A DNA stretch of 64,000 nucleotides. Source: Candidatus Omnitrophota bacterium. GTDB taxonomy: Bacteria; Omnitrophota; Gorgyraeia; Duberdicusellales; 4484-171. Positions 4,801 to 60,286 of the stretch are shown here, piece by piece. Where the stretch lies: assembly GCA_014729775.1 (NCBI GenBank), contig WJJJ01000006.1:16694-80693 (forward strand), written 5' to 3'. Positions within the stretch are counted from its first letter, which is position 1. The number at the start of each line of letters is the position of its first letter. Made by a program: the position numbers and the translations under genes. A model generated the notes under the pieces. The model saw nothing but the letters and a program-made list of their open reading frames with translations, was not told the DNA's origin and searched no databases.

Positions 4801-5473
4801 ACCTTTTCCCGTATTCCATATAATACAGAGGCGCGCGATGAAGCCATGCCTCCCAGGTCTTCACCCGAGTCACGTCCAGCCGGCGGAACCCGAACCGTTC
4901 AAAAAACGCAAACCGCGGCACCTGCCGCAATGCCCTGAACCGGATACCCCAGCGCCGCCGCGCCGCTTCCTCCAGCAGGGGAATCAACAGTTTCCGGCCG
5001 ATGCCCCGGCCGCGGTATCCGTCCATGATATTCTGATGTATGTGCACCGGATATTCGCGCGCGGCGCACGGCCGCAGCCGGGCATCCCCCTGAAAGGCGG
5101 AGAGCACATTGTATTTAATCATTCGTCCGGTTTTGGCGCTGAAAATCTTTCCCCGCGCGAGCATTTTGGCCAGGCTCACCGGCAATATCCTCAAAAGCAT
5201 CGTTCTGGAGTAGGCGCGGTCATCAACGCAGGCGCACACATACCCGACAGGTGTGCCCTGTTCTTCAGCGACCCAGGTGTATCTCGAATCATAATCAGTA
5301 AAATATTTCATTACCAGATCCGCGAGCAGTTCCCTGTCGGGAAAGAACACCTCGCACGGCTCGCCGAAATGCGCGGTATCACAACAAATGCGCCGCAGGG
5401 CATCCCGGTCTTTCGGTAAAAATTTCCTCACCGTAATCCGGGCCGCCTCATTCCGCGGAGAAACGGTTGTCAT
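4793..5473 (-). CDS. GNAT-family N-acetyltransferase
   Basis: Acetyl-CoA binding motif Q/R-x-x-G-x-G/A (YRGRGIGRKLL). Start placed at MTTVSPRNEA.. inside the longer ORF. Confidence 0.7.
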   Translation of the reverse strand: MTTVSPRNEAARITVRKFLPKDRDALRRICCDTAHFGEPCEVFFPDRELLADLVMKYFTDYDSRYTWVAEEQGTPVGYVCACVDDRAYSRTMLLRILPVSLAKMLARGKIFSAKTGRMIKYNVLSAFQGDARLRPCAAREYPVHIHQNIMDGYRGRGIGRKLLIPLLEEAARRRWGIRFRALRQVPRFAFFERFGFRRLDVTRVKTWEAWLHRAPLYYMEYGKRYE

Positions 5474-6026
5474 CAGACTCCTCCGGCAAATATGTAAATC
5501 GATATTTTGCTTTGGCAAGCTTTTCGAACAGCGCCGCTTCCTGGCTGAACGACGGCGAAATATCGACAATTTTGGAAAATCCCTCCCAGATCCCAAACCA
5601 CCCTAAAGGCATTAATACGATCCCGACTATTTCCAGCGTGAATTCACTGAATATCCGGTAATAGGCCGCAAACGTGAGTGACGCGAGAAAAAAAATCCCG
5701 AAACACACGAACATCGCGCCGCGCAGCCGTACGCGGCGAATTTCTTTGAGCCGCCTCAGCGAACGCTGCCGGAAATGCCGCGAAAGGCGCTGCGTAACCA
5801 TCGTTTCAGACTGCGGATCCCGGAGATCTTTGGGGGCACAGATCGTCACCGCTAAATCTCCGGTTTTTGTCTCCCGGTAGCGCTTGCGTAATTCCTGCAT
5901 AAAATCTTCCGAGAGAGTCCGTTGATTGAGCGGAGACGGATCAAAATCGGAAAACACATCATCCCAATCGTCGATCGCGATGACAATGTTATTTAAGCGT
6001 TTGAACTGGCTTTGTTCACCTTTCAT
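5448..6026 (-). CDS. hypothetical membrane protein (2 C-terminal TM helices)
   Basis: ORF with hydrophobic segments (FVCFGIFFLASLTFAAYY, IVGIVLMPLGWFGIW). No recognisable motif. Confidence 0.4.
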   Translation of the reverse strand: MKGEQSQFKRLNNIVIAIDDWDDVFSDFDPSPLNQRTLSEDFMQELRKRYRETKTGDLAVTICAPKDLRDPQSETMVTQRLSRHFRQRSLRRLKEIRRVRLRGAMFVCFGIFFLASLTFAAYYRIFSEFTLEIVGIVLMPLGWFGIWEGFSKIVDISPSFSQEAALFEKLAKAKYRFTYLPEESDDNRFSAE

Positions 6027-11894: not shown

Positions 11895-12461
11895 TTATTT
11901 CTTTTCCCAGACATGCTTCCCCTTGGTCTTATCGTACCGCTCAAACCAATCTCCCGACGCGGCTCTTTTGTAGTGATCCCGGAAAAAGATCCGTTCGACC
12001 TGAGAGACCTCGAGGTTGTTTTTTGCCGCGGTGACACGGTAAATCTGCCGTCTGGCTTTATTTTCTTTCTCAATGACCTGTTGAATTTCCTCTTTTTTTT
12101 CGGGAGCAATGTTCATGTCGATCAGTTCGATGTACCCGTTACGGTTCTCGCCGACATAACCGGCTTCAAAAAACCGTTTGACTTTCGGCGCCAGTTCTTT
12201 CCTCACGGCGATCGCGTCCTCGATCTGAACGCCGGAATCCTGCGCGTAGACATTCTGAATACCGAACAGCCAATTGAGCTGAGTGGGGGAATCTCCGTAA
12301 ATCTGATCTTCGATACTGTCGGCTTCCTCAACCACGTGCTGGTAGACGTCGACCCGCATGTTGATATCTACCTTCAACGGGTCTTTTGTCTGCAGCTGAA
12401 CCCGGGGTGTGCATGCCGCCGCGCACAGCAAAGCCGTAATAAAAAAGAATATCGGTCTCAT
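11895..12461 (-). CDS. lipoprotein, fused YnbE-like (N-term) and YdbL-like DUF1318 (C-term) domains
   Basis: Lipobox LLCAAAC. CTPRVQLQTKDPLKVDINMRVDV resembles E. coli YnbE (CTPRIEVAAPKEPITINMNVKI). The C-terminal GYVGENRNGYIELID...ENKARRQIYRVTAAKNNL..SQVERIFF matches the YdbL family. Confidence 0.55.
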   Translation of the reverse strand: MRPIFFFITALLCAAACTPRVQLQTKDPLKVDINMRVDVYQHVVEEADSIEDQIYGDSPTQLNWLFGIQNVYAQDSGVQIEDAIAVRKELAPKVKRFFEAGYVGENRNGYIELIDMNIAPEKKEEIQQVIEKENKARRQIYRVTAAKNNLEVSQVERIFFRDHYKRAASGDWFERYDKTKGKHVWEKK

Positions 12462-13591
12462 TGTTCACCTCCGCGGATATCGTGAAAATACACCGTGAAA
12501 TTCCGTTCTCCCATTTCCTCCGAAAAAAAACGCAGTTCAAGCATGAGCCCGTCCGGGGCCCGGGACAACTCCCAGGAAGCTCCATTATACCGGTAATCTT
12601 GCAAGTTGGCAACGAGAGCCCGGTAGGCGCGCGGGGTCATCCGCTTCTGCAGAAACGGAAAGGGCTTCTCCTGTTTGATCTGCACCTTTCCGCCGTCGCT
12701 GTTCTCCAGCAGTCCGCTCACCCGGGGCAAACCGCCAGCGCCGTTCGCGCACAGCCGCAAATCGCCGCTGAACGCTCCCGTGATCGTCACTTTTTCCTTC
12801 CCGCCGGCCAGCTGCACCAGGGAAGCAGCGGAAATATTGCTCGCCGACAGCCGGACACACGCCGGAACGAATTCGGCGAGGTCTACCCTGCCGGCCAAAG
12901 TCCCGCGGGCTCCCAGCAGCGGATGCGAAAATTCTTTCAGAATATAGGACATGCCCCTTTTTTCGACAGGCACTCGAATCGGAACAATATCCTTTCCTTT
13001 GAGCGAAATACCGGAAAGTTCCAGCACCAACCCATCCTGCGGACATTCCCGCAGGATGATCTGATCGATTTTCAACGGGCCCGTCTCAATCCGTCCATCG
13101 CGGACGGTCAGATTCTTCACCGCGGAAATTCCTTTCCCGCGGATCATCAGATCAACATCACCCTGTACCGTCAGCGGAAACGGCTCCCGCATCTTGATCC
13201 TGCCCCGGTCCACGCGTACCGCGACGGGAGGAGCACGGGAACCTCCGGACGGCATTGGGACGCCTGTTCCCGAAACGAGATCTTTGAAACCGCGCGCCTC
13301 CACCGCGATTTGTTCGATCGTAACCGAGGTAAGCTCCGGCTGAGCGATTCCCTGCCATCGAAAACGCAGAGTAACGCGGGCACAGGTGAGACTGGCGTGC
13401 GGTTTATCGGCGCGGAAATCGTAAAGGGTGAGAGAATTAAATCCGCTCTCCACGCGTCCAACCGCGAGCGAACCGCCGAGATACCGCGGTGCTGTCCGTA
13501 AAAGACAGACTTTGATCAGAAGATTCCTTCCGCATACCAATGACAGCAGTACGAACAGCACTCCGGCCGCGATCTTTGTTCGGAGCCTCAC
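12458..13591 (-). CDS. YdbH-like (AsmA-family) membrane-anchored protein, short form
   Basis: GTG start at 13591 overlaps the rhomboid stop (GTGA). It has an N-terminal TM helix (IAAGVLFVLLSLVCG) and is translationally coupled (4-nt overlap) to the YnbE/YdbL lipoprotein, as in the ydbH-ynbE-ydbL operon. Confidence 0.45.
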   Translation of the reverse strand: MRLRTKIAAGVLFVLLSLVCGRNLLIKVCLLRTAPRYLGGSLAVGRVESGFNSLTLYDFRADKPHASLTCARVTLRFRWQGIAQPELTSVTIEQIAVEARGFKDLVSGTGVPMPSGGSRAPPVAVRVDRGRIKMREPFPLTVQGDVDLMIRGKGISAVKNLTVRDGRIETGPLKIDQIILRECPQDGLVLELSGISLKGKDIVPIRVPVEKRGMSYILKEFSHPLLGARGTLAGRVDLAEFVPACVRLSASNISAASLVQLAGGKEKVTITGAFSGDLRLCANGAGGLPRVSGLLENSDGGKVQIKQEKPFPFLQKRMTPRAYRALVANLQDYRYNGASWELSRAPDGLMLELRFFSEEMGERNFTVYFHDIRGGEQ

Positions 13592-14385
13592 TCGCGGCTT
13601 TCCTTTTCCAGAATTTTTCTTTCTCTCCTGGTAAGAGAATCCATGCCCTCCCGGGAAATCTTTTCCAGTATCCGGTCCATTTCCCTGCGCCTGTCCGCGT
13701 GTCCGTCTTTCCCAGAGCCGAGCCACTGACGAAGCCGGTTTTTCAAAGCGTTCCAGGAAAAAATCCGGGCGGCAAAGAACCGAAACCGTTCCTGTTTGAC
13801 GTACAGGTACCCGATCCCCAGTCCCGCCAAATGAGCACTGTGGGCAATGCCTCCTCTTGGAGAGCCGAGCAGTGCCATTAATGTCAGACCGATGAATAAG
13901 AAAACCGCGTATTTGATCTTCATCGGAAACAGAAACAATACCAAGACCACGGTTTCGGGAAACATCACGGCGTAAGCGGCAAGCAGACCGAATATCGCGC
14001 CCGACGCGCCCACGATCGGGACCCCGGATCCCGGAGCAAGCAAAAAGCTGCACAGTCCCGCCCCGACGCCGGTGAGAAAATAGAATTTCAAGAACTCCCT
14101 TTTTCCCCACGCGGCCTCGATCCCGGGACCGAAAAAATACAATACCATCATGTTCACCAACAGATGGAAGAGTCCTCCATGAAGGAAAAGGTAGGTCACG
14201 AACTGCCAGATCATCAGGCGGGAGAACACCAGTACCGGCACCAGCCCGAACACGCGGAACCACGGAAAGTGGGCGAATATCGTACTTAGTAAAAACACGA
14301 CGACGTTCGCGATCAGCAGATTTTTTACCCCGGGAGTGATTCCGTATCCCGGATCGAATTGCGTATAGGTGCGATAGGGCGACAT
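13588..14385 (-). CDS. rhomboid family intramembrane serine protease
   Basis: GASGAIFG catalytic Ser motif, HLAGL catalytic His, six TM helices. Confidence 0.8.
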   Translation of the reverse strand: MSPYRTYTQFDPGYGITPGVKNLLIANVVVFLLSTIFAHFPWFRVFGLVPVLVFSRLMIWQFVTYLFLHGGLFHLLVNMMVLYFFGPGIEAAWGKREFLKFYFLTGVGAGLCSFLLAPGSGVPIVGASGAIFGLLAAYAVMFPETVVLVLFLFPMKIKYAVFLFIGLTLMALLGSPRGGIAHSAHLAGLGIGYLYVKQERFRFFAARIFSWNALKNRLRQWLGSGKDGHADRRREMDRILEKISREGMDSLTRRERKILEKESRE

Positions 14386-31767: not shown

Positions 31768-31860
31768 GCATATCAGGACATCAGTATATCAGCAGGCAAC
31801 AGATCAATGTATCAGGTGATCAAGAATTATGCGCATGCATCCCGGCCTGCTGCTTCTCCG
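31768..31860. repeat. intergenic repeat element copy A (ATATCAG family)
   Basis: GCATATCAGGACATCAGTATATCAGCAGGC ... GCCTGCTG inverted partner; 27/29 identical to copy C. Confidence 0.55.
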
Positions 31861-31945
31861 ACACCCTGACTACTACTCCCCTCGTCTGCCGGCCCGCTCT
31901 CTCCGACCCTTCCCTTCCAGGCTTCTTACCTCTTCTTCCCGTCTC

Positions 31946-32311
31946 TCACGCCGCATAAATAAACACCACGCCCACCGCGCAGGTAACCAACGCGAACACG
32001 CGGATCAACGGATCCGGGCTGCGCTCTATTTTTCCCATTATCGGCTGCAGCCCCCCGGAACGGAGCAGGAGGATCAGGGCGCCTTTGAGTACCGCGATCA
32101 CCCCGAACAGCGTGATCACAAACGACAAGCGGCACTGGGAGGCGGCAAAAAGAAGAAAAATTCCGACGATGAAGGCGATCGGCGCCGACCACAGGATCCG
32201 ATTACCCCGCTGCCAGAACACCAGCCACCGCCGCAAAATCTGAGGCCGGATGAGGTAGGCAACTCCCTCGGCCATGAATACAATACCCAGGAGTTTGACG
32301 ATTTCGGACAT
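31946..32311 (-). CDS. small hypothetical membrane protein (3-4 TM)
   Basis: 121-aa hydrophobic ORF flanked by repeat elements. No recognisable motif. Confidence 0.4.
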   Translation of the reverse strand: MSEIVKLLGIVFMAEGVAYLIRPQILRRWLVFWQRGNRILWSAPIAFIVGIFLLFAASQCRLSFVITLFGVIAVLKGALILLLRSGGLQPIMGKIERSPDPLIRVFALVTCAVGVVFIYAA

Positions 32312-32363
32312 ATCTCCCCCTTTTTTTTAACCCTAAACGCTAAATCCTCCACAAAGAAAAGTA

Positions 32364-32466
32364 AATCAGGATATCAGTTTATCGGAAACCATGAAAGTGT
32401 ATGCCGCAATGCGGTTTATCTGATAAACTCCCCACCCATATCCTGTGATACTGATATACTGTATCT
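32364..32466. repeat. intergenic repeat element copy B
   Basis: AAATCAGGATATCAG.. left end, CCTGTGATACTGATATACTGTATCTC right end, and an internal GTTTATC-T-GATAAAC palindrome. Confidence 0.5.
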
Positions 32467-32527
32467 CTCCTTTACTTCTTGCCTCTTACCTCTTCCCCTC
32501 CGGAATCAAGGATCCCGGATCGAAGAA

Positions 32528-33028
32528 CTACGTCGAGAATGTTCCTGTATGCATTACCTCTTCCACGCTCCTTTTTTCGTGCGGATGGAAACCTTCTTTG
32601 GGATAACCGAGAGAGATCAGGCTCACCAGCTTATACCCGGAAGGTACCTCCATCAATTCCAGGATATGGTCGGCGTATTCTTTTTTATCGCCGGCGATCC
32701 AGCAGGACCCGATGCCCAGCGCCCGCGCAGCCAGCAGAAGCTGGGTCGTCGCGGCACTGCCGTCTTCAAGGTAATACTTGGTGATCTTGCTCACCACGAT
32801 GACGCATGCCGCGGCGCCAGCCAGGAACTTGCCGTTGGGGCAGATCTTCCCCAGTTCTTTCAAACGGCCCGCATCCGTGATTACGATAAACTCCCACGGC
32901 TGTTCGCCCCGCGCGGTCGGCGCCAGACGCGCCGCGTCGATCATCCTGTGAAATGCGGGCGTCTCGATCGGCTTATCTTCATACTCTCTCACGCTGCAGC
33001 GATTTTTCACGGTTTCAAAAAACTCCAT
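32528..33028 (-). CDS. nitroreductase family protein
   Basis: RCSVREYEDKPIE..APTARGEQPWEF motif and GIGSCW near the C-terminus. Confidence 0.75.
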   Translation of the reverse strand: MEFFETVKNRCSVREYEDKPIETPAFHRMIDAARLAPTARGEQPWEFIVITDAGRLKELGKICPNGKFLAGAAACVIVVSKITKYYLEDGSAATTQLLLAARALGIGSCWIAGDKKEYADHILELMEVPSGYKLVSLISLGYPKEGFHPHEKRSVEEVMHTGTFST

Positions 33029-33033
33029 ACAAA

Positions 33034-33735
33034 TTATCCTCCTTTCTCACCCCAAAACAGATGCGCGACACCGGGAAACAAGACCCTGCGGCCGGCGCGC
33101 AGCGCCCGGGCCTGTAATAATCCTTCCATTACTTTATCCGGAGACAAAAACGTTTCGATTGAGGCACCTAAATAACGGTACGCCCGGCAGCGTCCGCCGA
33201 ACATCCTTACCGCGGCCGGGATCACGCCGAGATAGCGGCGGTACAATCCATGAATCATGCCCGTTTGCGGCGGGCACAGCTCCAGTATCCCCAGCCGACC
33301 GCCGGGCTGCAGTACCCGCACGCATTCGCGCAACGCGTCCACCGGCCGTGCGATATTACGCAGGCCGAAGGCCATGCTCACCGCGTCAAAAGAACAATCG
33401 GCAAACGGCAACGCGCAGGCATCGCCCCATATCCAGCATACGTGTATTTTCCCGCGGGAAGTTTTTTCCGCGGCTTTATCCAGCATTGCCTGGGTAAAGT
33501 CAAGGCCGGTTACCTCAGCACCCCGCCGCGCGCAGGCAATCGCTACATCACCACTGCCGCAGCAAACATCGAGCACCCGGCTTCCCCGACCGATCCGGAG
33601 TTCGTTAATCAGTGCCCGGCGCCAGAAACGGTCGAGATTGGCGCTCAGCAAATGATTGAAAAAATCATAACGGCCGCTTACCGAGGAAAACATCCGCCGG
33701 ATCTTTTCCGGACTTTTGCCTTCACTCACCGGCAT
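33034..33735 (-). CDS. ubiE: demethylmenaquinone/ubiquinone C-methyltransferase
   Basis: MFSSVSGRYDFFNHLLS.., SAM motif VLDVCCGSGD; typical UbiE/MenG. Confidence 0.8.
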   Translation of the reverse strand: MPVSEGKSPEKIRRMFSSVSGRYDFFNHLLSANLDRFWRRALINELRIGRGSRVLDVCCGSGDVAIACARRGAEVTGLDFTQAMLDKAAEKTSRGKIHVCWIWGDACALPFADCSFDAVSMAFGLRNIARPVDALRECVRVLQPGGRLGILELCPPQTGMIHGLYRRYLGVIPAAVRMFGGRCRAYRYLGASIETFLSPDKVMEGLLQARALRAGRRVLFPGVAHLFWGEKGG

Positions 33736-40773: not shown

Positions 40774-41430
40774 TCAGCTTTCAATCCCATATTTTTGCGA
40801 TACTTCCCGCAAAAACCGCTGCGTTTTTTCCAGCACCTGTCTGGCCGCCTGCATGACTCTCAGCACTTCGGCTTCCGAAATGTCGTCGCGGGCGGCACCC
40901 AGCGTTTCCAGCTGGGTGTCCACTAATTCGGATATGATTTTGAGTTTATGCGCGTAGGTGGAATCCATCACGATTTTTAACGACCTCGGATTTAAATAAT
41001 ACTCCTTCTGTTGAAGAAGGTACTCGTCAAACCACATGTAGTTCATCAATACCGAAATCATCTGCAAACGGTCCCGCAGAGAAAGCAGGTAATACTTCTC
41101 TTTTTCGCTGATCCCCTCGTCGTTCCAGCGGCCCTTTAAAAAATTGTCGAGCCGGGTATAGACCGAATCGAGTTCCCGGAAATGCTGTTCAAACGGTCCC
41201 GCGAACTGCCCGTAATCGATCCTGGGCTTCATCTCCTCCGGCAGAAGCACTTCGCCCGCAGACGACCCTGCCCTCTGACCAGGACAAAGATGTTCTTCGG
41301 GAACGAATTGAAACACCATCGCCGCGCCGGCGGCACCTGCGGCAAGAAGCGAGAGAATCCACAAAATAAGATACCGGCTTCGCGCGTTCTTCATAAGAAG
41401 TATCATAACTCTTTTTGCGCAAGAAATCAA
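40774..41430 (-). CDS. hypothetical membrane-anchored protein (operon gene 4)
   Basis: N-terminal TM helix and a soluble domain. No recognisable motif. Confidence 0.4.
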   Translation of the reverse strand: MISCAKRVMILLMKNARSRYLILWILSLLAAGAAGAAMVFQFVPEEHLCPGQRAGSSAGEVLLPEEMKPRIDYGQFAGPFEQHFRELDSVYTRLDNFLKGRWNDEGISEKEKYYLLSLRDRLQMISVLMNYMWFDEYLLQQKEYYLNPRSLKIVMDSTYAHKLKIISELVDTQLETLGAARDDISEAEVLRVMQAARQVLEKTQRFLREVSQKYGIES

Positions 41431-41439
41431 TCGCGGAAA

Positions 41440-42363
41440 TTATTTTGCGGGAGCGGAAGAAGTAGTCACCGGCGGTCCCGCGGGCGCAGAAGAGCCCGAA
41501 TCTCCCGCGGACGGAGTAAGCGAAGGAAGGACCGGCTTTTCCAGGAAATGGTGATCAAGCGAGGCGGCCTGCGGCGGCATTTCTTTGGGCGGCGCGTTCT
41601 CGGCGACCGGGATGCTTTCGTCGCCGTAGGAAACCTTGAAGGGAAAGACGAACTGCACGGCTTTTACCGCCCGGTTATCGTAATCGAACTTAGTCTGCAC
41701 GTTGGGAAATATGAGCTTGATCTCTTCAATCCTGAAATCGGATTCCGGAAAAAACACGTGTCCTTCGTATTTGACGTTCGGATATATGTAGCCGCTGCGC
41801 AGCATCACTTTTTCCAGCATCGCGTCAATCCGATTGGTTTTTCGCTGAAAAAAATAATTTGCGATCTTAAAAGGCGCGTCGTAGTACCCCGGCGCGTAAT
41901 CCTCCCCAGCCTGAGTAAATCCCGATACCGGTTTCGACCAGCCCTTGGGCTGGGGCCGATAATAAGCCGCCAGATTCTGGTGCTGACCGTGCAGGTCATC
42001 GACGATAATGCACTGCTCCGGATAAATCCGGATCGGCTCATCGCTGAAATTGGCGATTTTCACGTCAAATACGATGGAATCATCCGGATAGGGATTATGC
42101 GCCCTGGTGCCGAAGAATTCACTGTCCAGAAAGAATTTATCGAGTTCCGCATGGGTCATGTGGGTAACGGTGATCTTGATATCTTCCTTGAGCACCGTCC
42201 GCGTTTTGGGCCGCAAAGAAAACTCCCCTGGCACCCGGTTTCGCTGACGGGAATAGAATTCCCGTTTTGAAAACTGCTCAAACGCCGGATTGTGCGAACT
42301 CCCGCAGCCGCTCACCGCACATAATCCGGCACACACGCAGCCGACAATGAAAATATTCTTCAT
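41440..42363 (-). CDS. hypothetical lipoprotein with Pro/Ser-rich C-terminal tail (operon gene 3)
   Basis: Lipobox AVSGCG at the chosen start MKNIFIVGCVCAG; low-complexity tail (PSAGDSGSSAPAGPPVTTSSAPA). Confidence 0.45.
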   Translation of the reverse strand: MKNIFIVGCVCAGLCAVSGCGSSHNPAFEQFSKREFYSRQRNRVPGEFSLRPKTRTVLKEDIKITVTHMTHAELDKFFLDSEFFGTRAHNPYPDDSIVFDVKIANFSDEPIRIYPEQCIIVDDLHGQHQNLAAYYRPQPKGWSKPVSGFTQAGEDYAPGYYDAPFKIANYFFQRKTNRIDAMLEKVMLRSGYIYPNVKYEGHVFFPESDFRIEEIKLIFPNVQTKFDYDNRAVKAVQFVFPFKVSYGDESIPVAENAPPKEMPPQAASLDHHFLEKPVLPSLTPSAGDSGSSAPAGPPVTTSSAPAK

Positions 42364-44083: not shown

Positions 44084-44608
44084 CTATTCAGTCCCGAGGT
44101 AATCGTCGCGGTTCAAAAGGTCGTAATAATGGTCATTTATGACGGAATCTTCTTTCACGATGCCGTAAGAATGGGTTCCGGTGACCGAATCGTGATCCAC
44201 GGTACGGCCGTAAGGCGAAACCACCGCGTTACTTACCATCACTTCATCGAGCACGCCGGATAATCCGGTAAAAGTCCCTGAGAACACGACATAATCGCCT
44301 TTATTCACGTGTACCGGGAGCGCGAAGGAATCTTTCAGCATCAGCGTGACTTTTACCGCGAACGGCGAATACGGACTCGCTTCAGTGGAAAGCGTCACCC
44401 GGACGTCTTCAAACCGGTTTTTTTCAATACGGGTTACGTACCCTTTTCCGTTGATAAACTTATGAGCGTAATGCGCTTCCAATTCACGAAGCTCAGTTCC
44501 GGAAACGCCGTTGCGCAGCGCACCGTAAATATCCTGAAAAATATAATTCGCGTGTGCGGAACACGGGATCACCGCCAGCGCGATCACACAGATAATCAGC
44601 TTTTTCAT
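44084..44608 (-). CDS. secreted hypothetical protein
   Basis: Signal peptide (LIICVIALAVIPCSAHA). No recognisable motif. Confidence 0.45.
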   Translation of the reverse strand: MKKLIICVIALAVIPCSAHANYIFQDIYGALRNGVSGTELRELEAHYAHKFINGKGYVTRIEKNRFEDVRVTLSTEASPYSPFAVKVTLMLKDSFALPVHVNKGDYVVFSGTFTGLSGVLDEVMVSNAVVSPYGRTVDHDSVTGTHSYGIVKEDSVINDHYYDLLNRDDYLGTE

Positions 44609-44697
44609 GCTCCCTCCTTGTATACTCGGATCCTTCTAAGAAAAACATTTTTCTGTTGGTCCTCCAGAATCGGAGACCGAGGATCCTGCGTCCTGGA

Positions 44698-45078
44698 TTA
44701 CGCTCTTCCCTCCAGAATCTTTCCGACCGTCATCAATAACTCCTGGCTCGTCACCGGTTTCGCGAGAGAACGCACCTCACCGGTGAGATTCTTTAAAAAC
44801 TCTTCGTCTTCTTTGGTCAAAATCCCGGTAAGAAACAACGTCGGAATCATATTGGTTTGTTCATCTTCGGAAAGCAGCCGCTTGATATCTTCTCCGCGCA
44901 TACCGGGCATAATCACGTCCAGGATGATCAAATCCGGCTGGTGCTTTTTCGCGAGCGTAAACGCTTCTTTCCCTTCTGTCGTGGAAACGACCTCATAATC
45001 CGCCCGCTGAAGCATTTGCGTGATTACACGAACCACCTCTTCCTCATCATCCACAAGCAAAATCTTCTTATTCTCCAC
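44698..45078 (-). CDS. single-domain response regulator (CheY-like receiver)
   Basis: KILLVDDEEEV..DLIILDVIMPGM..K motifs. GTG start at 45078 is preceded by AAGGAGG; the longer ORF reaches 45147. Confidence 0.7.
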   Translation of the reverse strand: MENKKILLVDDEEEVVRVITQMLQRADYEVVSTTEGKEAFTLAKKHQPDLIILDVIMPGMRGEDIKRLLSEDEQTNMIPTLFLTGILTKEDEEFLKNLTGEVRSLAKPVTSQELLMTVGKILEGRA

Positions 45079-45395: not shown

Positions 45396-47054
45396 TCATG
45401 CTCCCATTTCCGCTTTCACGTCTTCTTCGGCAGTAGCGGCCGGACGGATATTGAATTTTTCCCGGAGGACTTTGAGCACGTTGGACGAAACAAATGCCGG
45501 AAGTGAAGGCCCCAGAACAATATTCCGCACATCCAGTGAAAACAAGGTCAGCAGAATACATACCGCTTTCTGTTCGTACCAGGAAATGATGAACGAAAGC
45601 GGCAAATCATTCACGCCGCACCCCAGTGCTTCCGCGAGACCCGAAGCGATCTTGATCGCTGAATAGGAGTCGTTACACTGACCGCAGTCAAGCAAACGGG
45701 GTATCCCGCCGATCGTTCCTAAGTCCAAACGGTTAATCCTGAACTTCCCGCAGGCCAACGTCAATATCACGCAGTCTTCGGGAACCTTCTCGGCAAATTC
45801 GGTATAATAGTTGCGGCCCGGTTTGGCGCCGTCACAACCGCCGATCAAAAAAAATCTTTTGATTTTTTTCTGCTTCACCAGATCGAGTACTTTATCGGCG
45901 ACGCCAAGCACCGCATGATGACCGAAGCCTACGGTAATCGTCTTCTCGATCCGGTCATCCTTAAATCCGCCGAGAGAAAACGCTTTTTCGATGACCGGTG
46001 AAAAGTCTTTTTTTTCGTTTCCTCCGGGAATATGCGCAATTCCGGGCCAGGCGACCAAGCCGGTGGTAAAAATTCGGTCAATGTAAGAGGATTTCGGCTC
46101 CTGGATACAATTGGTCGTCATCAGGATAACCGCGGGGATTCCGTCGAACTCCTTCTGCTGATTCTGCCAGGCCGACCCAAAATGGCCGGCAAAATGAGGA
46201 TATTTTTTCAACTCAGGGTACCCGTGCGCAGGAAGCATCTCTCCGTGGGTATAGATATTGATTCCCTTCCCTTCGGTCTGCTCCAGAAGCTGTGCAAGAT
46301 CCAGCAGATCATGCCCGGAAACAATAATTGCCGGCCCTTTTTTCACTCCGAGAGCTACTTCCGTGGGTTCGGGATGGCCGAAGCGCCCGGTATGCGCAGC
46401 ATCAAGAAGTTCAAGGCATTTTAAGTTCACGCTGCCGAACTCAAAAATCAGCTTCACCAAATCATCGGCATTCAGCGAATCGTCAACTAATGCCGCCAAA
46501 CCGCGGGAAAAGAACCGATTAACCTCGATGTCTTCCTTCCCCAGCAGTAATGCGTGATGCGCGTAGGCCGCCATTCCTTTGAGACCGTAGAGCAAAATCT
46601 CCCGCAGACTGCGAATATCCTCGTCCAATTCCGGATCACTCATAATCCCTACTTCATCAGCCCGCGAAAGCATCTGCTCACGGGTCTGCCCAGGCTCCCA
46701 TAACACTGCGCTGGGAATCCCGGCAATCCATTTCTCATCCCCCCTTTCTTCCACCCTGGCTTTGAGCATATCCCTCAAAGTTCTGGCCCGTATGATATCC
46801 GCCTCCAGCCGGGCCTCGTCAAAATTCACGTTGGTTACGGTAGTAAACAGCCCTTCCGCCAGAAATCTCGCGACCTCGGCTTCTTCCATGCCAATCTTCC
46901 GCGCTTCCGATTCGTACCAGGCGATCTGCTTCAGCAGATGAACCAATACGTCCTGCAGATCTGCGACCGGAGCTGTCTTTCCGCATACTCCTTTTTGTAA
47001 ATGACACCCTTGACCCTTCATCGTCTGCTCACATTGGCGGCAAAACATTTCCAT
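45396..47054 (-). CDS. hcp: hydroxylamine reductase / hybrid-cluster protein
   Basis: MFCRQCEQT N-terminal cubane-cluster motif, 552 aa, hybrid-cluster Cys/His/Glu ligand pattern. Confidence 0.9.
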   Translation of the reverse strand: MEMFCRQCEQTMKGQGCHLQKGVCGKTAPVADLQDVLVHLLKQIAWYESEARKIGMEEAEVARFLAEGLFTTVTNVNFDEARLEADIIRARTLRDMLKARVEERGDEKWIAGIPSAVLWEPGQTREQMLSRADEVGIMSDPELDEDIRSLREILLYGLKGMAAYAHHALLLGKEDIEVNRFFSRGLAALVDDSLNADDLVKLIFEFGSVNLKCLELLDAAHTGRFGHPEPTEVALGVKKGPAIIVSGHDLLDLAQLLEQTEGKGINIYTHGEMLPAHGYPELKKYPHFAGHFGSAWQNQQKEFDGIPAVILMTTNCIQEPKSSYIDRIFTTGLVAWPGIAHIPGGNEKKDFSPVIEKAFSLGGFKDDRIEKTITVGFGHHAVLGVADKVLDLVKQKKIKRFFLIGGCDGAKPGRNYYTEFAEKVPEDCVILTLACGKFRINRLDLGTIGGIPRLLDCGQCNDSYSAIKIASGLAEALGCGVNDLPLSFIISWYEQKAVCILLTLFSLDVRNIVLGPSLPAFVSSNVLKVLREKFNIRPAATAEEDVKAEMGA

Positions 47055-47120: not shown

Positions 47121-47534
47121 TCAGGCGGCACCCTTCCCGGATAAAGAAGCAACGGTGATTCCGTCCAGTTTTTTCCTTAGGTCCTGCTGGATCTCCTTCA
47201 TCTTCCGGTGAAGAGGACATGTCGAAGAATTCACGCAGGTCTTTGGGTTTTTTAAACACTCCATCAGGGTAAGCGGTCCCTGAAAGATACGGATCACTTC
47301 TTGCAGCTGAATCGTATCCGGCAGGCGAGCAAGTCTAAACCCACCCTGTTTACCTTTTTGAGAACGCAATACTCCGGCAGCACTGAGCCTCTGGAGAATG
47401 CGACGCAGGAACGGTTGAGGGATATCAAGCTCCCTGCTCAGCTGAGCCACAGTGACAATCCTTTCCGGATAAAGACTGAGATATGAAAGCGCCCGTATCG
47501 CGTAATCAGTATCTTTGGTAATCAGCTTCATCAT
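47121..47534 (-). CDS. Rrf2-family transcriptional regulator (NsrR/IscR-like)
   Basis: N-terminal wHTH (DYAIRALSYLS...VTVAQLSRELDIPQPFLRRILQRL). Three C-terminal Cys for a cluster. Immediately upstream of hcp. Confidence 0.8.
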   Translation of the reverse strand: MMKLITKDTDYAIRALSYLSLYPERIVTVAQLSRELDIPQPFLRRILQRLSAAGVLRSQKGKQGGFRLARLPDTIQLQEVIRIFQGPLTLMECLKNPKTCVNSSTCPLHRKMKEIQQDLRKKLDGITVASLSGKGAA

Positions 47535-54676: not shown

Positions 54677-55315
54677 TTATCGAATAATTTTCTTCAACTC
54701 GACAATACGGTCAATCAGAAAATCCGGTCCGGCTTTGCGCAGTGACTGGAGATCACCGACACCGTAGGTCACCCCGCAGGTGATAAGACCGGCCCTTTTT
54801 CCCGCGAGGATATCCACATCCATATCTCCAATGAATACCGCTCTCGACGGAGGCACGCGAAACAATTCTCTGGCCCGGTCAACCGGACACGCGTCCGGTT
54901 TTAGGCACCGGTCGTCGTCTCCGCCGACGATATGAAGAAAATATGTGTCCAGGTGCACCGCTTTTAATACCGCCTCAGCCATTTCTTTGCGGGCATTCGT
55001 CGTCACCAGAAGTACTTTTTCCCGGAAATGCTCCAGCACATCCTCCACTCCCGAAAAAACCTTCATTTCTTCCAGGTTCCGGCGGTAATGATTCGTAAAG
55101 AGTTCTACTCCCCGGTCAACGACTTCCTTTCTTTGTCCCGCACACTGATAGACCAGATCCCGCACGCCCGTCCCTATCACGGCCACCACTTCGTCAAAAG
55201 AGCGTTGGGGAAGATCAAGATCGCGTAACATCTCGTTGACCGCATGGGTAATGTGTTCCCGGGAATCCACCAGGGTACCGTCCAAATCAAAGATCAGCAT
55301 GTCCGCTTCAGACAT
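54677..55315 (-). CDS. HAD-superfamily hydrolase (phosphoglycolate-phosphatase-like)
   Basis: Motif I LIFDLDGTLVDS at the chosen start MSEADM. Motif II/III pattern (TNARK.., GDMDVDILAG). Confidence 0.7.
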   Translation of the reverse strand: MSEADMLIFDLDGTLVDSREHITHAVNEMLRDLDLPQRSFDEVVAVIGTGVRDLVYQCAGQRKEVVDRGVELFTNHYRRNLEEMKVFSGVEDVLEHFREKVLLVTTNARKEMAEAVLKAVHLDTYFLHIVGGDDDRCLKPDACPVDRARELFRVPPSRAVFIGDMDVDILAGKRAGLITCGVTYGVGDLQSLRKAGPDFLIDRIVELKKIIR

Positions 55316-56006
55316 CGATCCCCTTTCGCCCCTGCCGTCGTTTTTGCCGAATCGCTTCTTCAAACACCACACCGCCGGAAATAATATACTTGAGAGCCGT
55401 ATCGACCGCGACATCCAACACCTGCACTTTTTCCCGGGGAAAGAGCATTAACAGCCCTGAAAACGGCGCGGGCGCAAGCGCGATAAACACGTTGACCAAA
55501 TCCTTGCCGGTTTTTTGGCTCAGTACGTCAAGCTGTTCATTGGTAAGAAAACCCAATGAGTACGTCCCGGGATAAGGATACTCTACCAGCACCACTTTTT
55601 GGAATTCAGTTTTTTTCTCTCCGAACAGGAAATCCGAAAGCTGCTTGGCGGCGGGATAAATATTGGCGACAAACGGAATCTTCAACAAGAGCCTTTCCAG
55701 CCAGGGAAACAATTTCTGCCCAACTAAATGAGTAGACAACACCCCCACCCCGACCACACACAGAATCAGCACAATGAAGCCGAGACCGGGAATACGAGAT
55801 CCGGTGAGTTCAAACAGAACCGAATTGATATACCGTTCGGCAAACCCGTTTATCGCCTGGAATAAAAATACCAGAATGTAAATCGTGACCGCCAGCGGGA
55901 ACAGCGCCGCGATCCCGGCGAAAAAATACTTTCTGACACGGATAAGCCATCCCTTCTGTCTGTCAGAAGCCGACCGCCCCTTCTCGACGCCGGCATTCGT
56001 TGTCAT
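55308..56006 (-). CDS. DUF502-family membrane protein
   Basis: IRVRKYFFAGIAALFPLAVTIYILVFLF is the DUF502 N-terminus. Confidence 0.6.
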   Translation of the reverse strand: MTTNAGVEKGRSASDRQKGWLIRVRKYFFAGIAALFPLAVTIYILVFLFQAINGFAERYINSVLFELTGSRIPGLGFIVLILCVVGVGVLSTHLVGQKLFPWLERLLLKIPFVANIYPAAKQLSDFLFGEKKTEFQKVVLVEYPYPGTYSLGFLTNEQLDVLSQKTGKDLVNVFIALAPAPFSGLLMLFPREKVQVLDVAVDTALKYIISGGVVFEEAIRQKRRQGRKGIDV

Positions 56007-56027: not shown

Positions 56028-56471
56028 TTATTGGGCAACAAATTTATCTTTTCCTACTCCGCATACCGGACACCGCCAGTCATCAGGAATTTTGTCAAAG
56101 GGAGTGCCCGGCTCGATACCTCCGTCGGGATCTCCCTTGGCCGGATCGTACACGTATCCGCACACCGTGCAGCGGAAAGTTCCTTCATTTTGCTTTGATC
56201 CTTTCTGCGGCTGTTTCTCGGCACCGCGCGCTTCGGTAATTTTTTCCCGGGTTTCCCCGCCGGGACTTTCCACATGGAAGCCTATTTTTACCGTGACCTG
56301 CCAGTAATCCACCCGTTTATTCACGATGTGCCCGCGGGTTTCCACCACTTCAAACCACCGCATATTCCGGATCGACTCCCCGGCCTGAGAAATGGCGTTC
56401 TGCACCGCGGATTCGATACCGGTCTTAGAAGACCCCACTATTTCGACCTTTTTATACACTGCTTCGCTCAC
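56028..56471 (-). CDS. dodecin-rubredoxin fusion protein
   Basis: Residues 1-68 ([48 protein letters not shown]) are a dodecin. A linker follows, then a canonical rubredoxin ([38 protein letters not shown]). Confidence 0.65.
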
Positions 56472-56687
56472 CGCAACCCCCCCTCCTTGTACCCCAGTTC
56501 GACCTGCAAATATTCTCTATTCACCGATAGTATACACTTGCTTCCCACCGGTGCAACATGATTTTCTCCGGCGCGCCTCTTGCGGATTCTGCCCAACGGC
56601 CACGAAACAACGACCATGAGCGGTTTCTTCACATTTTTAGTTTTTTCGCTATGCTTCTCTGAAATCAAGGATCGAAGATCAACCGTC

Positions 56688-56930
56688 TCAAGAACCGATC
56701 CCGACCGCCTGATCGATCGCCGGCTTGTCAAAACCGACAATAATATTCCCCTCCACATCGAGTACAGGAACTCCCATTTGTCCCGACTTCTCCTGCATCT
56801 CTTTGATCTTCTCGGCGTCGCCTGCGACGTTGACCTCTTCGTACTCGACCTGGTGTTCTTCCAGATACTGTTTTGTTTTTTGACAATAAGGACACGTCGG
56901 CGTGCTGTAAATGGTTACTTTCACCATCAA
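56688..56930 (-). CDS. glutaredoxin-like protein (NrdH/Grx fold)
   Basis: 80 aa with CPYC active site and GVPVL motif. Confidence 0.7.
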   Translation of the reverse strand: MMVKVTIYSTPTCPYCQKTKQYLEEHQVEYEEVNVAGDAEKIKEMQEKSGQMGVPVLDVEGNIIVGFDKPAIDQAVGIGS

Positions 56931-56978
56931 ATTCCCTCCTTTCTTACCACGGTAACTTTTCTTTTTCCCGACTTCTCT

Positions 56979-57491
56979 TTACTGGAGCTTTTTCCGGGCC
57001 GCTTCGATAAAGGCCGGGAGGTCGGACGGCTGGCGGCTAGTCACCAGATTCCCGTCAACCACGACTTCCTGATCACAGTACTCGGCGCCGGCATAGATGA
57101 GATCCTGCCGGATTGATTTCCATCCGGTCGCTTTCCTTCCTTCCAGTGCTTTAGCGGTAACGAGCAGCTGCGCCCCATGGCAGATGCTGAACACCGGCTT
57201 GCCGTCATCCATGAATTTTCTTGCGAACGCGACCGCATCAGGGCTGACGCGAAGACGATCCGGAGAATACCCTCCCGGAATCAATAACGCGTCAAACCGA
57301 TCGGGCTGCGCCTCCGTGACTGCCTGGTCGATCTTTACCGTGGTTCCTTCTTTTTTCCCTTTCACTTCCGCGCCGGCTTTTACCCCCAGATGAACCAACT
57401 CATGCCCCGCGTCGCGAAAGGCGTCCGCGGGTTTCTGGTATTCGGAATCTTCAAACATGTCGTCGATGATCACCGCTATCTTTTTCCCCAT
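56979..57491 (-). CDS. DJ-1/PfpI-family protein (YhbO-like)
   Basis: Start chosen at MGKKIAVIIDD. Catalytic elbow ICHGAQLL. Motif ALLIPGG. Confidence 0.8.
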   Translation of the reverse strand: MGKKIAVIIDDMFEDSEYQKPADAFRDAGHELVHLGVKAGAEVKGKKEGTTVKIDQAVTEAQPDRFDALLIPGGYSPDRLRVSPDAVAFARKFMDDGKPVFSICHGAQLLVTAKALEGRKATGWKSIRQDLIYAGAEYCDQEVVVDGNLVTSRQPSDLPAFIEAARKKLQ

Positions 57492-58611: not shown

Positions 58612-59373
58612 TTATTCCGCATAGATCATTTTCCGGGTCATTCCCCCGTCAACGATCAAATTCACCCCCGTGACGAAAGAGTTTTCCGGTTCTCCCAGGA
58701 ATTTTACCGCACGCGCGACATCATCCGGGATCCCGACCCGGCCCGCCGGATGCTGAGCGTGATCTACCTTGGTGAGGGTCTCTTTCTTTCTGCGGGAAGA
58801 TTTGGCCCACCCGGAAACATCGATCCATCCCGGGCTCACCGCGTTTACCCGGATTTCAGGCCCGAGACTCACCGCCAGTGAATGGGTCAACGCGAGTACG
58901 CCGCCCTTTGAAGCCGAATATGCGAAGGTATCAGCCTCTGACATCAGCGCCCGGGTCGAGGCAATATTCACGACTGCGCCGCGGGATTTGCGCAGATAGG
59001 GCGCGCAGTGCTTCACAGATAAAAAATATCCGGTCAGATTGACCGCCAGCTGGCGATTCCATTCCGCGTGGGAGAATTCCTCCAAAGACGCATTCTTTAC
59101 CACTGCCGCGTTATTCACCAGAACATCTATTCTTCCGAAGACCTGAACCGCCTGCTCCACCATGGCCTCGACCGAATCCGGAACCGCGGTGTCGCATTCT
59201 ATGAACTTTATTATTCCCTGATCCTTCCCTTCTTGTTCAGTTTCTTCACCCGCTTCCCGGTCAAGCTCGGCAATGACCACCCGGAAACCTTCTTCCAGAA
59301 ACCGCAGAGCGACACATTTCCCTATACCCTGACCTCCGCCGGTAACGACCGCTACTCTGTGCTTCCTTCCCAT
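58612..59373 (-). CDS. short-chain dehydrogenase/reductase (SDR)
   Basis: Start chosen at MGRKHRVAVVTGGGQGIG (TGxxxGxG). NNAA. YSASK catalytic triad. Confidence 0.8.
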   Translation of the reverse strand: MGRKHRVAVVTGGGQGIGKCVALRFLEEGFRVVIAELDREAGEETEQEGKDQGIIKFIECDTAVPDSVEAMVEQAVQVFGRIDVLVNNAAVVKNASLEEFSHAEWNRQLAVNLTGYFLSVKHCAPYLRKSRGAVVNIASTRALMSEADTFAYSASKGGVLALTHSLAVSLGPEIRVNAVSPGWIDVSGWAKSSRRKKETLTKVDHAQHPAGRVGIPDDVARAVKFLGEPENSFVTGVNLIVDGGMTRKMIYAE

Positions 59374-59503
59374 TGAAATTCTCCTCTTTTGAATATTTAC
59401 TCCATGATCTTCGGCTCGACCCGAACCATCCGCAGAAAAGGGGACGGTTCTATTTTCACCTCCAAAACATTCGTTCACCTCTGCGAGTAACAGAAAGGGA
59501 GTG

Positions 59504-60286
59504 TCACTGCTGGCACTCGGCACACCAGTACCCGCTCCTGCCGCCGATTTTTCCTTTTTGGATCCGGCCGCCACACCTCGGACACCTCCCGCCCTTCCCT
59601 CTGGCGGGAATAAGCCAGGTCCGCGGCATCTGCGCGGGGTCGGCCTTATACTGCACGGATTTTTCCAAGACATATTTCATTTTCTGAAAAACATTTTTTT
59701 TCTCTTCTTCGGTAAGCCGGCTGACCTTTTTTTTGGGCAGCACACCCGCCTGAAAAAGGATCTCATCGGAATAAATGTTCCCGATTCCGGCGAGGTACTT
59801 CTGGCTCATTAAGGCCTGTTTCGCGGTACTGCGGCCGCGCCCCAGCGCGTCGCTGAAAGTCTCAAAATCCACCTCCAGCGCGTCCGGTCCCAGCTTCTGT
59901 TTCCGGATGTACTCATCCATCGACCCCGCATACTGGATCCGGCCCAGCAACCGCCGGTTATCAAAGGCAAGCGTATACCCGTTGGCAAACCTGAACCGCG
60001 CCCGGGGATGCCCCGGTTCCGCACCAGGATCTTTGTAGTACCGGAAAAAACCGGTCATGCCGAAGTGGACCACCAGCCAGTCTCCCTTTTTCAACTTGAC
60101 GAAAAGATACTTCCCCCGGCGGTCGGCAGTTTTGAATTCGTCGTTCTTCAGTTTTTTGCGAAACTTCGGTTCCGTGATCCCTTTTAATATCCTTTTCCTG
60201 TCCACTTCTACGTCTTTGATTTTTTTATGCAGACTCGTCCGCTTCAGATAGCGGCGAAACACTTCTACGTCAGGCAACTCGGGCAT
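59504..60286 (-). CDS. mutM: formamidopyrimidine-DNA glycosylase (Fpg/Nei family)
   Basis: N-terminal MPELPDVE catalytic Pro2/Glu3, H2TH region, and C-terminal zinc finger CPRCGG...C..C. Confidence 0.85.
   Translation of the reverse strand: MPELPDVEVFRRYLKRTSLHKKIKDVEVDRKRILKGITEPKFRKKLKNDEFKTADRRGKYLFVKLKKGDWLVVHFGMTGFFRYYKDPGAEPGHPRARFRFANGYTLAFDNRRLLGRIQYAGSMDEYIRKQKLGPDALEVDFETFSDALGRGRSTAKQALMSQKYLAGIGNIYSDEILFQAGVLPKKKVSRLTEEEKKNVFQKMKYVLEKSVQYKADPAQMPRTWLIPARGKGGRCPRCGGRIQKGKIGGRSGYWCAECQQ

Follow-up and report, generated by a model that had tools for sequence, protein, structure and literature searches.

A natural dodecin–rubredoxin fusion in Candidatus Omnitrophota: a possible flavin cage with tethered electron carriers

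We analysed a 64,000-nucleotide stretch of DNA from a Candidatus Omnitrophota bacterium (contig WJJJ01000006.1, positions 16,694 to 80,693), called the window below, in which one uninterrupted gene encodes a dodecin domain joined to a rubredoxin domain by a flexible linker (Table 1). This architecture is real, rare, lineage-restricted, unannotated and undescribed in the literature searched. With a probability of roughly one half, we propose that the protein forms a flavin-storing dodecamer that displays 12 tethered rubredoxins and exchanges electrons with the flavin in defence against oxygen and reactive oxygen species (ROS).

An earlier note on this DNA had described the open reading frame (ORF) as a complete dodecin and a complete rubredoxin connected by a low-complexity linker of about 30 aa. 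Both peptides quoted there are present exactly and both domain profiles are covered. The linker, too, is borne out, by the Pfam and NCBIfam domain boundaries and by the disorder predicted by AlphaFold2 (AF2). To this we add the strand, which the note had left out: the ORF lies on the minus strand.

The N-terminal part of the protein is a bona fide member of the dodecin family. It matches PF07311 (Dodecin) over aa 5–68 (profile positions 1–64 of 64, E = 1.4e-26, 93 bits against a cutoff of 22.5) and the NCBIfam model of bacterial dodecins, NF043052 (DodecBact), at 106.8 bits against a cutoff of 75 (positions 1–67 of 67). In the AF2 monomer the domain takes on a beta-alpha-beta-beta topology (strands at 5–15, 37–50 and 53–65, helix at 19–31), at a predicted local distance difference test (pLDDT) value of only ~68. 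Foldseek paired it with the H. halophila dodecin 2vxa with a probability of 1.00, a template modelling (TM) score of 0.61 on the target and 64% identity, and a gap-free sequence alignment of the two gave 65%.

In a gap-free alignment with M. tuberculosis Rv1498A (3oqt), W39 of the fusion falls on Trp39, the main flavin-binding residue of that protein (PMC8044443). This flavin-stacking tryptophan and the R46-G47 pair are invariant in 13 fusions, and Q58 is nearly invariant. Three residues of the T. thermophilus dodecin (TtDod) which, judging by PDB titles, have been mutated (W38F, R45A and, in 2ux9, R65A) align with W39, R46 and H66 of the fusion. The equivalent of TtDod R65 is a histidine in the window protein and an asparagine in the other fusions. 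Where the protein departs from the single-domain dodecin architecture of ~70 aa is in its length of 147 aa and its appended rubredoxin, and this is the point of novelty.

The C-terminal part is likewise a bona fide member of the rubredoxin family. PF00301 (Rubredoxin) covers aa 99–144 (profile positions 2–47 of 47, E = 3.1e-24, 85.2 bits against a cutoff of 23), and the NCBIfam rubredoxin model NF045768 is matched at 90.6 bits, barely over its cutoff of 90. The two knuckles, CxxCG...CPxCG, are present with classical spacing. All 13 sequences share the predicted Fe ligands C101, C104, C134 and C137 and the aromatic core (Y106, Y108, F125, W132 and F144). Between C104 and C134 the spacing is 29 residues, which is a criterion for classical rubredoxins (PMC12528894). 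V139, also invariant, corresponds to Val44 of the C. pasteurianum rubredoxin, in a numbering that agrees with the L41A, G43A and V44A mutant titles. AF2 models this domain at a pLDDT of ~90, and Foldseek superposes it on the D. gigas rubredoxin 1rdg with a TM score of 0.94 and a root-mean-square deviation of 0.6 A over 51 columns.

Between the two domains, aa 69–95 have a pLDDT of ~30 in the AF2 monomer. Across the family the linker varies from 21 to 55 aa and its net charge from +1 to +5. Compared pairwise, the fusions are on average 66% identical over the dodecin domain and 75% over the rubredoxin domain, but only 25% over the linker. Both domains are under purifying selection and the linker is not, as is typical of a tether with a function.

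When 5.8 billion protein clusters were searched, 12 unnamed proteins with the Dodecin + Rubredoxin architecture (138–172 aa, 50–58% identity) came up, originating from ENA, NCBI, JGI and Logan assemblies. The 13-sequence alignment of fusions is collinear from M1 to the C-terminus, and the N-termini of the homologs line up exactly at M1, encoded by the GTG start of the window gene. Further fusions were found in two GTDB genomes (L008 and L009), in a JGI metagenome (L088), in cluster look-ups (P0390–P0394) and in an exhaustive search (P0121), the last of which also yielded a truncated fragment at a contig end (P0124). In total, at least 17 homologs from independent assemblies share the architecture at 46–58% identity, with differing linker lengths.

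These data bear directly on the worry, raised in the earlier note, that a frameshift, a sequencing error or a chimeric assembly had joined two separate genes. The ORF has no interruption, its whole length can be aligned with 12 homologs of other assemblies, conservation covers both domains, the same architecture with differing linkers recurs in the at least 17 sequences, the GC content of the gene (53.2%, and 56.8% at third codon positions) is native to the window, and look-alikes with an intergenic stop or another flavin domain were recognised and excluded, so that an artefact has a practically negligible probability.

The second worry, that the architecture is common and already annotated, is also laid to rest. 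When 1.84 billion representatives of 50%-identity clusters were searched with HMMER, only P0121 (144 aa) matched the full profile in a single stretch; all other matches were lone dodecins, lone rubredoxins or fragments. Among 185,579 species-representative genomes the full fusion is present in at least two and, among the matches listed, both are Ca. Omnitrophota metagenome-assembled genomes. The sole public name for any member is "hypothetical protein" (MBD3379792.1, Ca. Omnitrophota), and the exact sequence of the window protein is absent from the public protein collection.

Dodecins had been said in the earlier note to occur otherwise as stand-alone proteins, and in the longer dodecin matches that we checked no second Pfam domain was found. 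Its statement that the fusion had not been described also agrees with our literature search. In the literature searched, "dodecin" and "rubredoxin" co-occur only in an unrelated fold table, and there is no mention of a dodecin fusion or of a multi-domain dodecin.

Several candidates for further fusions were rejected. L059 (Armatimonadia, 34% identity over aa 7–144) turned out to be a ferritin-like gene followed by a stop and a separate rubredoxin, and L091 is an Hrb-type protein with a different flavin domain. L013, L093 and L104 are partial matches without the N-terminal dodecin part, P0013–P0017 are tandem rubredoxins, and P0020 and P0120 are dodecins with over-extended starts. Additionally, three stand-alone dodecin relatives (P0136, P0214 and P0253) carry C-terminal low-complexity tails of 25–40 aa, rich in K/R/S, D/E or E/K, with no second domain. 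The fusion linker could have evolved from tails of this kind.

For residues specific to the fusions, we compared them with 112 stand-alone dodecins and 139 other rubredoxin domains. The set is skewed toward sequences that resemble the window protein, so the contrast is a conservative one. Tyr56 (codon at 56304–56306, minus strand) is found in 16 of 16 fusions vs 14% of the stand-alone dodecins, of which 78% have a histidine there; all five solved bacterial dodecins that were aligned also have histidine at this position. Y56-W57 is invariant in the fusions, and Tyr56 lies next to W57 on the same strand as Q58, two residues away from it. Its fixation may be an adaptation for electron relay or for phosphate contact.

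K16, V67 and R100 are likewise enriched in the fusions. Of the signatures, K16, Y56, V67 and R100 are present in the window protein, and I8 and E136 are absent. In a neighbour-joining tree, all 16 fusion dodecin domains group in a single clade that also holds the truncated P0124 and the odd P0153, with a bootstrap support of 0/30; the tree of rubredoxin domains does not resolve the fusions. The signature residues favour a common origin, and a single origin of the fusion appears likely, if not proven.

The likeness to known bacterial dodecins (2vxa; Rv1498A, 3oqt/2yiz; T. thermophilus 2cz8; Streptomyces 6r1e/6ri3) extends to a domain of ~68 aa with beta-alpha-beta-beta topology and conserved W39, R46 and Q58. 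Those proteins are single-domain and have His56, whereas the fusions have tyrosine and append a linker and a rubredoxin at the surface-exposed C-terminus.

Two known groups of proteins also link a flavin-binding part covalently to a rubredoxin. In the Hrb/flavin-reductase + rubredoxin fusions (PF01613+PF00301) the rubredoxin is classical and joined through a linker, and their rubredoxin domains are the closest relatives of the one studied here (78–85% identity). In contrast, the flavin domain of Hrb has the fold of an NAD(P)H:flavin oxidoreductase, is catalytic and holds a prosthetic FMN, and is not a storage cage with stacked dimers of exchangeable flavin; the Pfam scan of the window fusion protein gave no match to PF01613. 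Hrb-type fusions act in O2/NO detoxification chains of anaerobes, according to a reference cited in PMC12528894.

In flavorubredoxin NorV and in the multidomain flavodiiron proteins with an appended rubredoxin and NROR, a flavoprotein carries a tethered rubredoxin at its C-terminus, and the NorV-type rubredoxin relays electrons between a Pyr_redox_2-type reductase and flavin. The NorV model NF003954 scores the fusion at 57.1 bits against a cutoff of 711, with only aa 80–145 matching the C-terminal rubredoxin region of the model; the flavorubredoxin core of metallo-beta-lactamase and flavodoxin is absent, and the protein is not a NorV. Judged by domain content, the fusion is outside the known flavin + rubredoxin families, since it has neither a Flavin_Reduct domain nor a flavodiiron core.

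One architectural counterpart is engineered. M. tuberculosis dodecin (mtDod) scaffolds carry C-terminal cargo on flexible linkers and form 12-valent flavin-binding particles (PMC7414021), but they are synthetic and made for immunisation and bioengineering, while the fusion is natural and conserved and its cargo is redox-active. A more distant analogy is offered by bacterioferritin and Bfd, where a cofactor-storage cage is emptied by electron transfer from a small Fe-S protein. That system differs in its fold, stores iron and not flavin, has a partner that is not covalently attached, and shares no homology with the fusion. By analogy, the fusion would work most like Hrb or flavorubredoxin, and in architecture it resembles the engineered mtDod scaffolds.

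Evidence on function comes from the genes around the fusions. In all nine non-redundant contexts, one of them the window, redox or oxygen-stress genes lie on the same strand within ~3 genes of the fusion (Table 1). Gene order varies between the loci and the oxygen-stress theme persists. Two unrelated types of superoxide dismutase (SOD) recur beside the fusion, which argues for functional linkage. The two Pyr_redox_2 flavoproteins that end just before the fusion have TIGR03169 as their best NCBIfam match, below threshold; by architecture they are candidate reductases and may represent an uncharacterised group of rubredoxin reductases.

We infer assembly, cofactor loading and electron transfer as follows. 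Subunits of 16 kDa would probably form, through the dodecin domain, the usual hollow dodecamer, with dimers of oxidised flavin (FMN in bacterial dodecins) stacked between Trp39 residues and up to 12 flavins in store. In dodecins, flavin binding requires the assembled dodecamer, in which the flavins are stacked between symmetry-related tryptophans; the termini are exposed on the surface, and dodecamers with C-terminal protein cargo on flexible linkers still assemble and bind flavin (PMC7414021). The C-terminus of the fusion would leave at the particle surface, and each subunit would bear an Fe(Cys)4 rubredoxin on a disordered tether of 21–55 residues. Twelve one-electron carriers would then be able to reach the six flavin pockets as well as outside partners. 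An electron-transfer site on every subunit of the cage, as the earlier note proposed, is plausible.

Dodecin binds flavin tightly in its oxidised state, and the complex falls apart on reduction (PMC3743158), so that redox chemistry directly controls the occupancy of the cage. Free flavins in their reduced form reduce Fe(III), drive Fenton reactions and mobilise iron from ferritins (PMC9018393). In anaerobes, NROR-type flavoenzymes reduce rubredoxin, which feeds O2- and ROS-detoxifying enzymes (PMC12528894).

The direction that we favour would run from reduced flavin or flavin semiquinone to rubredoxin. Val44-type rubredoxins have potentials of about -50 to -90 mV and free FMN of about -205 mV, and preferential binding of oxidised flavin lowers the potential of the bound flavin further. 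With these potentials, transfer from reduced flavin to rubredoxin is downhill and the reverse steeply uphill. Free reduced flavin, a source of superoxide and a driver of Fenton chemistry, would be oxidised and then locked in the cage (a "flavin trap and electron drain"), and its electrons would leave through the rubredoxin for the cell's ordinary rubredoxin network. On the opposite side, the neighbouring NAD(P)H flavoenzymes or the 2-oxoacid:ferredoxin oxidoreductase (OFOR) are candidate partners. Such a particle would belong to the oxygen/ROS defence of oxygen-sensitive uncultured bacteria and would couple flavin sequestration to electron transfer.

A more specific form of this proposal can be put forward only tentatively. 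The fusion would be the first natural cofactor-storage cage with a built-in relay, in which the 12 tethered rubredoxins oxidise reduced flavin, whether free or captured, possibly via the fusion-specific Tyr56-Trp57 pair beside the pocket; the flavin would then be trapped and its electrons pass to ROS-detoxifying rubredoxin pathways.

A number of observations weigh against electron exchange in a stress-related flavin cage. The AF2 monomer shows no packing or docking between the two domains (predicted TM score 0.39). Conservation of W39 could reflect structure instead of flavin binding. Rubredoxin potentials (about -90 to +50 mV) are far above that of dodecin-bound flavin; electron flow is plausible in one direction only, and bound oxidised flavin may be redox-silent. 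Access to isoalloxazines sandwiched between tryptophans may also be limited. As for the contexts, the sets of neighbours differ between loci, and four of them (L001, L003, L006 and L168) come from one closely related subclade and are not independent. For the Pyr_redox_2 flavoproteins of L007 and L008 the scores do not support an assignment as NROR or NorW, with 47.6 and 33.3 bits for NF003437 (NorW) against a cutoff of 392. Finally, in the window itself no SOD, 2-oxoacid:ferredoxin oxidoreductase or reductase gene adjoins the fusion.

Some of the same evidence would fit a particle in which the dodecin merely makes a 12-valent rubredoxin hub and the bound flavin stays outside the electron flow. 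The hub would raise the local concentration of rubredoxin for partners such as reductases, superoxide reductase, rubrerythrin and flavodiiron proteins, as a natural counterpart of the mtDod display scaffolds. Dodecin tolerates C-terminal cargo well (PMC7414021), the long linker is unconserved, the two domains make no contact in the AF2 prediction, and the contexts are rich in rubredoxin-type partners and candidate reductases. A hub alone accounts poorly for the invariance of W39 and R46 and the near-invariance of Q58, and the fusion-specific Tyr56 on the Q58 strand suggests that the pocket is under fusion-specific selection. Moreover, many simpler oligomerisation domains exist, and flavin enzymes recur as neighbours. 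We therefore regard this explanation as unlikely, while it fares best among the alternatives.

Less probable still is that the two domains act independently, one as a flavin buffer and the other as a soluble electron carrier, and were fused in the manner of a Rosetta stone for co-regulation or stoichiometry in the oxidative-stress response. The disordered linker and the missing AF2 interface would suit such an arrangement, as would the resemblance of the domains to ordinary stand-alone relatives (71–74% and 80–82% identity). Against it, the domain order and the tether have been kept over 46–58% divergence, and Y56, K16, V67 and R100 suggest adaptation to the fused state. Twelve-fold display would also inevitably bring rubredoxin within reach of the flavin pockets.

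The electrons might also run the other way, from a reductase (Pyr_redox_2 or OFOR) through rubredoxin to the caged flavin. Under O2 the flavin would stay locked, and when anoxia returns reduced flavin would be freed to flavoenzymes, analogous to the Bfd-triggered release of iron from bacterioferritin. That flavin reduction dissociates the dodecin holocomplex (PMC3743158) is in keeping with this scheme. So is the candidate flavoprotein reductase whose gene immediately precedes the fusion in L007 and L008. The rubredoxin domain of E. coli flavorubredoxin passes electrons to FMN, and the rubredoxin region of the fusion resembles that of NF003954. Nevertheless, with Val139 of the C. pasteurianum Val44 type such transfer would be steeply uphill, and no low-potential adaptation is evident in the rubredoxin, so we consider this release mechanism improbable and place it below independent action of the domains.

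Should the more specific form of the proposal hold, the fusion would serve oxygen-sensitive candidate-phylum bacteria as a dedicated trap for flavin and drain for electrons, and would give bacterial dodecin its first clear physiological role in oxidative stress. So far the cellular role of bacterial dodecins has been loosely defined as flavin storage or buffering. A natural fusion beside genes for SOD, hemerythrin, ferritin-like proteins, peroxidase and flavin reductases makes testable the hypothesis that dodecins control the redox state and availability of free flavin in the response to redox and oxygen stress. It marks a lineage-restricted adaptation in Ca. Omnitrophota, a group whose oxygen tolerance is poorly understood. 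The fusion is also a natural precedent for engineered dodecin display scaffolds, and bioelectronics or biocatalysis could gain from it a compact self-assembling particle that carries 12 flavins and 12 Fe-S centres.

Table 1. The fusion gene and its parts, its neighbours in the window, and redox genes beside homologous fusions (L numbers denote loci of homologs; all other positions are those of the window)
Feature	Location	Strand	Basis or remark
Dodecin-linker-rubredoxin gene	56028..56471	minus	147 aa, GTG start, TAA stop at 56028-56030; ORF list, Pfam/NCBIfam, 12-homolog alignment
Dodecin domain	56268..56471	minus	aa 1-68; PF07311, identity to 2vxa, AF2, Foldseek
Flexible linker	56178..56267	minus	aa 69-98, K/E/A/G/S-rich, predicted disordered; AF2 and family comparison
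Classical rubredoxin domain	56031..56177	minus	aa 99-147; PF00301, NF045768, AF2, Foldseek
Shine-Dalgarno sequence AGGAGG	56482..56487	minus	10 nt 5' of the fusion GTG start; sequence reading
Possible fusion promoter, TTGCAC-16 nt-TATACT	56529..56556	minus	weak; in the 216-nt gap; sequence reading only
YruB-family glutaredoxin-like protein (CPYC), 80 aa	56688..56930	minus	PF00462, E = 2e-20; TIGR02196, 95.5 bits (cutoff 88.55)
DJ-1/PfpI protein	56979..57491	minus	PF01965, E = 1.3e-51; TIGR01382, 175 bits
DUF502 membrane protein	55308..56006	minus	21 nt after the fusion stop; PF04367, E = 2e-30
Fe/Mn-SOD	L001		41 nt downstream of the fusion
Fe/Mn-SOD	L168-L172		27 nt upstream of the fusion
Fe/Mn-SOD	L003-L005		~1 kb upstream of the fusion
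Cu/Zn-SOD, non-homologous; thiol peroxidase (Tpx)	L008		Cu/Zn-SOD one gene downstream of the fusion
Hemerythrin	L007, L009, L088		near the fusion
Ferritin-like proteins	L009, L088		near the fusion
MsrAB; WrbA-like flavodoxin	L088		flavodoxin directly downstream of the fusion
Two-subunit 2-oxoacid:ferredoxin oxidoreductase (POR alpha/beta)	L007, L008, L009, L088
Pyr_redox_2 flavoproteins	L007 3738-4874, L008 6803-7987	plus	homologous, 37% mutual identity; end 10-13 nt before the fusion
FMN-dependent azoreductase	L006		near the fusion

In the window, the genes for the CPYC glutaredoxin and the DJ-1/PfpI protein, both named as neighbours in the earlier note and in agreement with our profile matches, lie upstream of the fusion on the same strand. 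The gap between them is 48 nt, and 216 nt separate the glutaredoxin gene from the fusion. The PfpI gene likely starts at the ATG at 57491, which has a GGAGG site, rather than with the GTG of a longer ORF reaching 57548. A scan for consensus promoters and terminators made no call at the TTGCAC-TATACT site, which was below threshold, and found no terminator between the glutaredoxin gene and the fusion. On the other side, the DUF502 gene may be co-transcribed with the fusion. A tblastn comparison of the window with six fusion loci found the fusion alone in common, and the DUF502 gene is not kept beside it.

The idea of a stress module around the fusion, to which the earlier note had also assigned hcp, holds in part. 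Glutaredoxin and PfpI are present at the locus, across the 216-nt gap, and the contexts of the homologs support the idea much better; hcp is not in the same cluster. It lies ~9 kb from the fusion (Prismane, E = 2.8e-168; 45396–47054, minus strand), directly downstream of a gene for an Rrf2-family regulator (47121–47534), with genes for citrate synthase, PtsI, MscS, a TamB-like protein and other housekeeping functions in between. Probably, hcp and the regulator make up a nitrosative-stress unit separate from the fusion locus.

The homologous loci hold further genes of note. In L008, a 285-aa Tpx (4964–5821, plus strand; NF001808, 165 bits) is fused to a C-terminal pterin-4a-carbinolamine dehydratase-like domain (aa 187–284), which scores 70.9 bits against a cutoff of 80. 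This pairing is unusual, and its gene belongs to the oxidative-stress island that also holds the dodecin-rubredoxin fusion. A lipoprotein of the CC0125/CC1285 family is encoded directly upstream of the fusion in L001 (9397–9855) and L003 (7661–8128), on the plus strand, with 64% identity between the two copies. Directly downstream of the fusion in L088 (4200–5919, plus strand) are genes for a WrbA/FMN_red-like flavodoxin, an RnfD/NqrB-family membrane protein (251 aa) and a 117-aa protein without a Pfam match, which may constitute a small membrane-linked redox unit.

An Rfam scan of the whole 64 kb found no family at its gathering score and no riboswitch or rRNA. Four ORFs of the window have no Pfam match at E ≤ 1e-5, namely 12458–14263 (minus, 601 aa), 31829–33175 (plus, 448 aa), 41182–42270 (plus, 362 aa) and 44309–44998 (plus, 229 aa). 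The best identities of the window proteins to public data are only ~55–62%, which points to a poorly sampled lineage. HtpG, for one, is ~62% identical to proteins of KSB1, Omnitrophota and Calditrichota alike. In the SDR gene (58612–59673, minus strand), the longest ORF has an N-terminal extension of ~100 aa without a domain, and the SDR domain begins at aa 106; the true start is probably near Met101 (MGRKHRVAVVTGGG).

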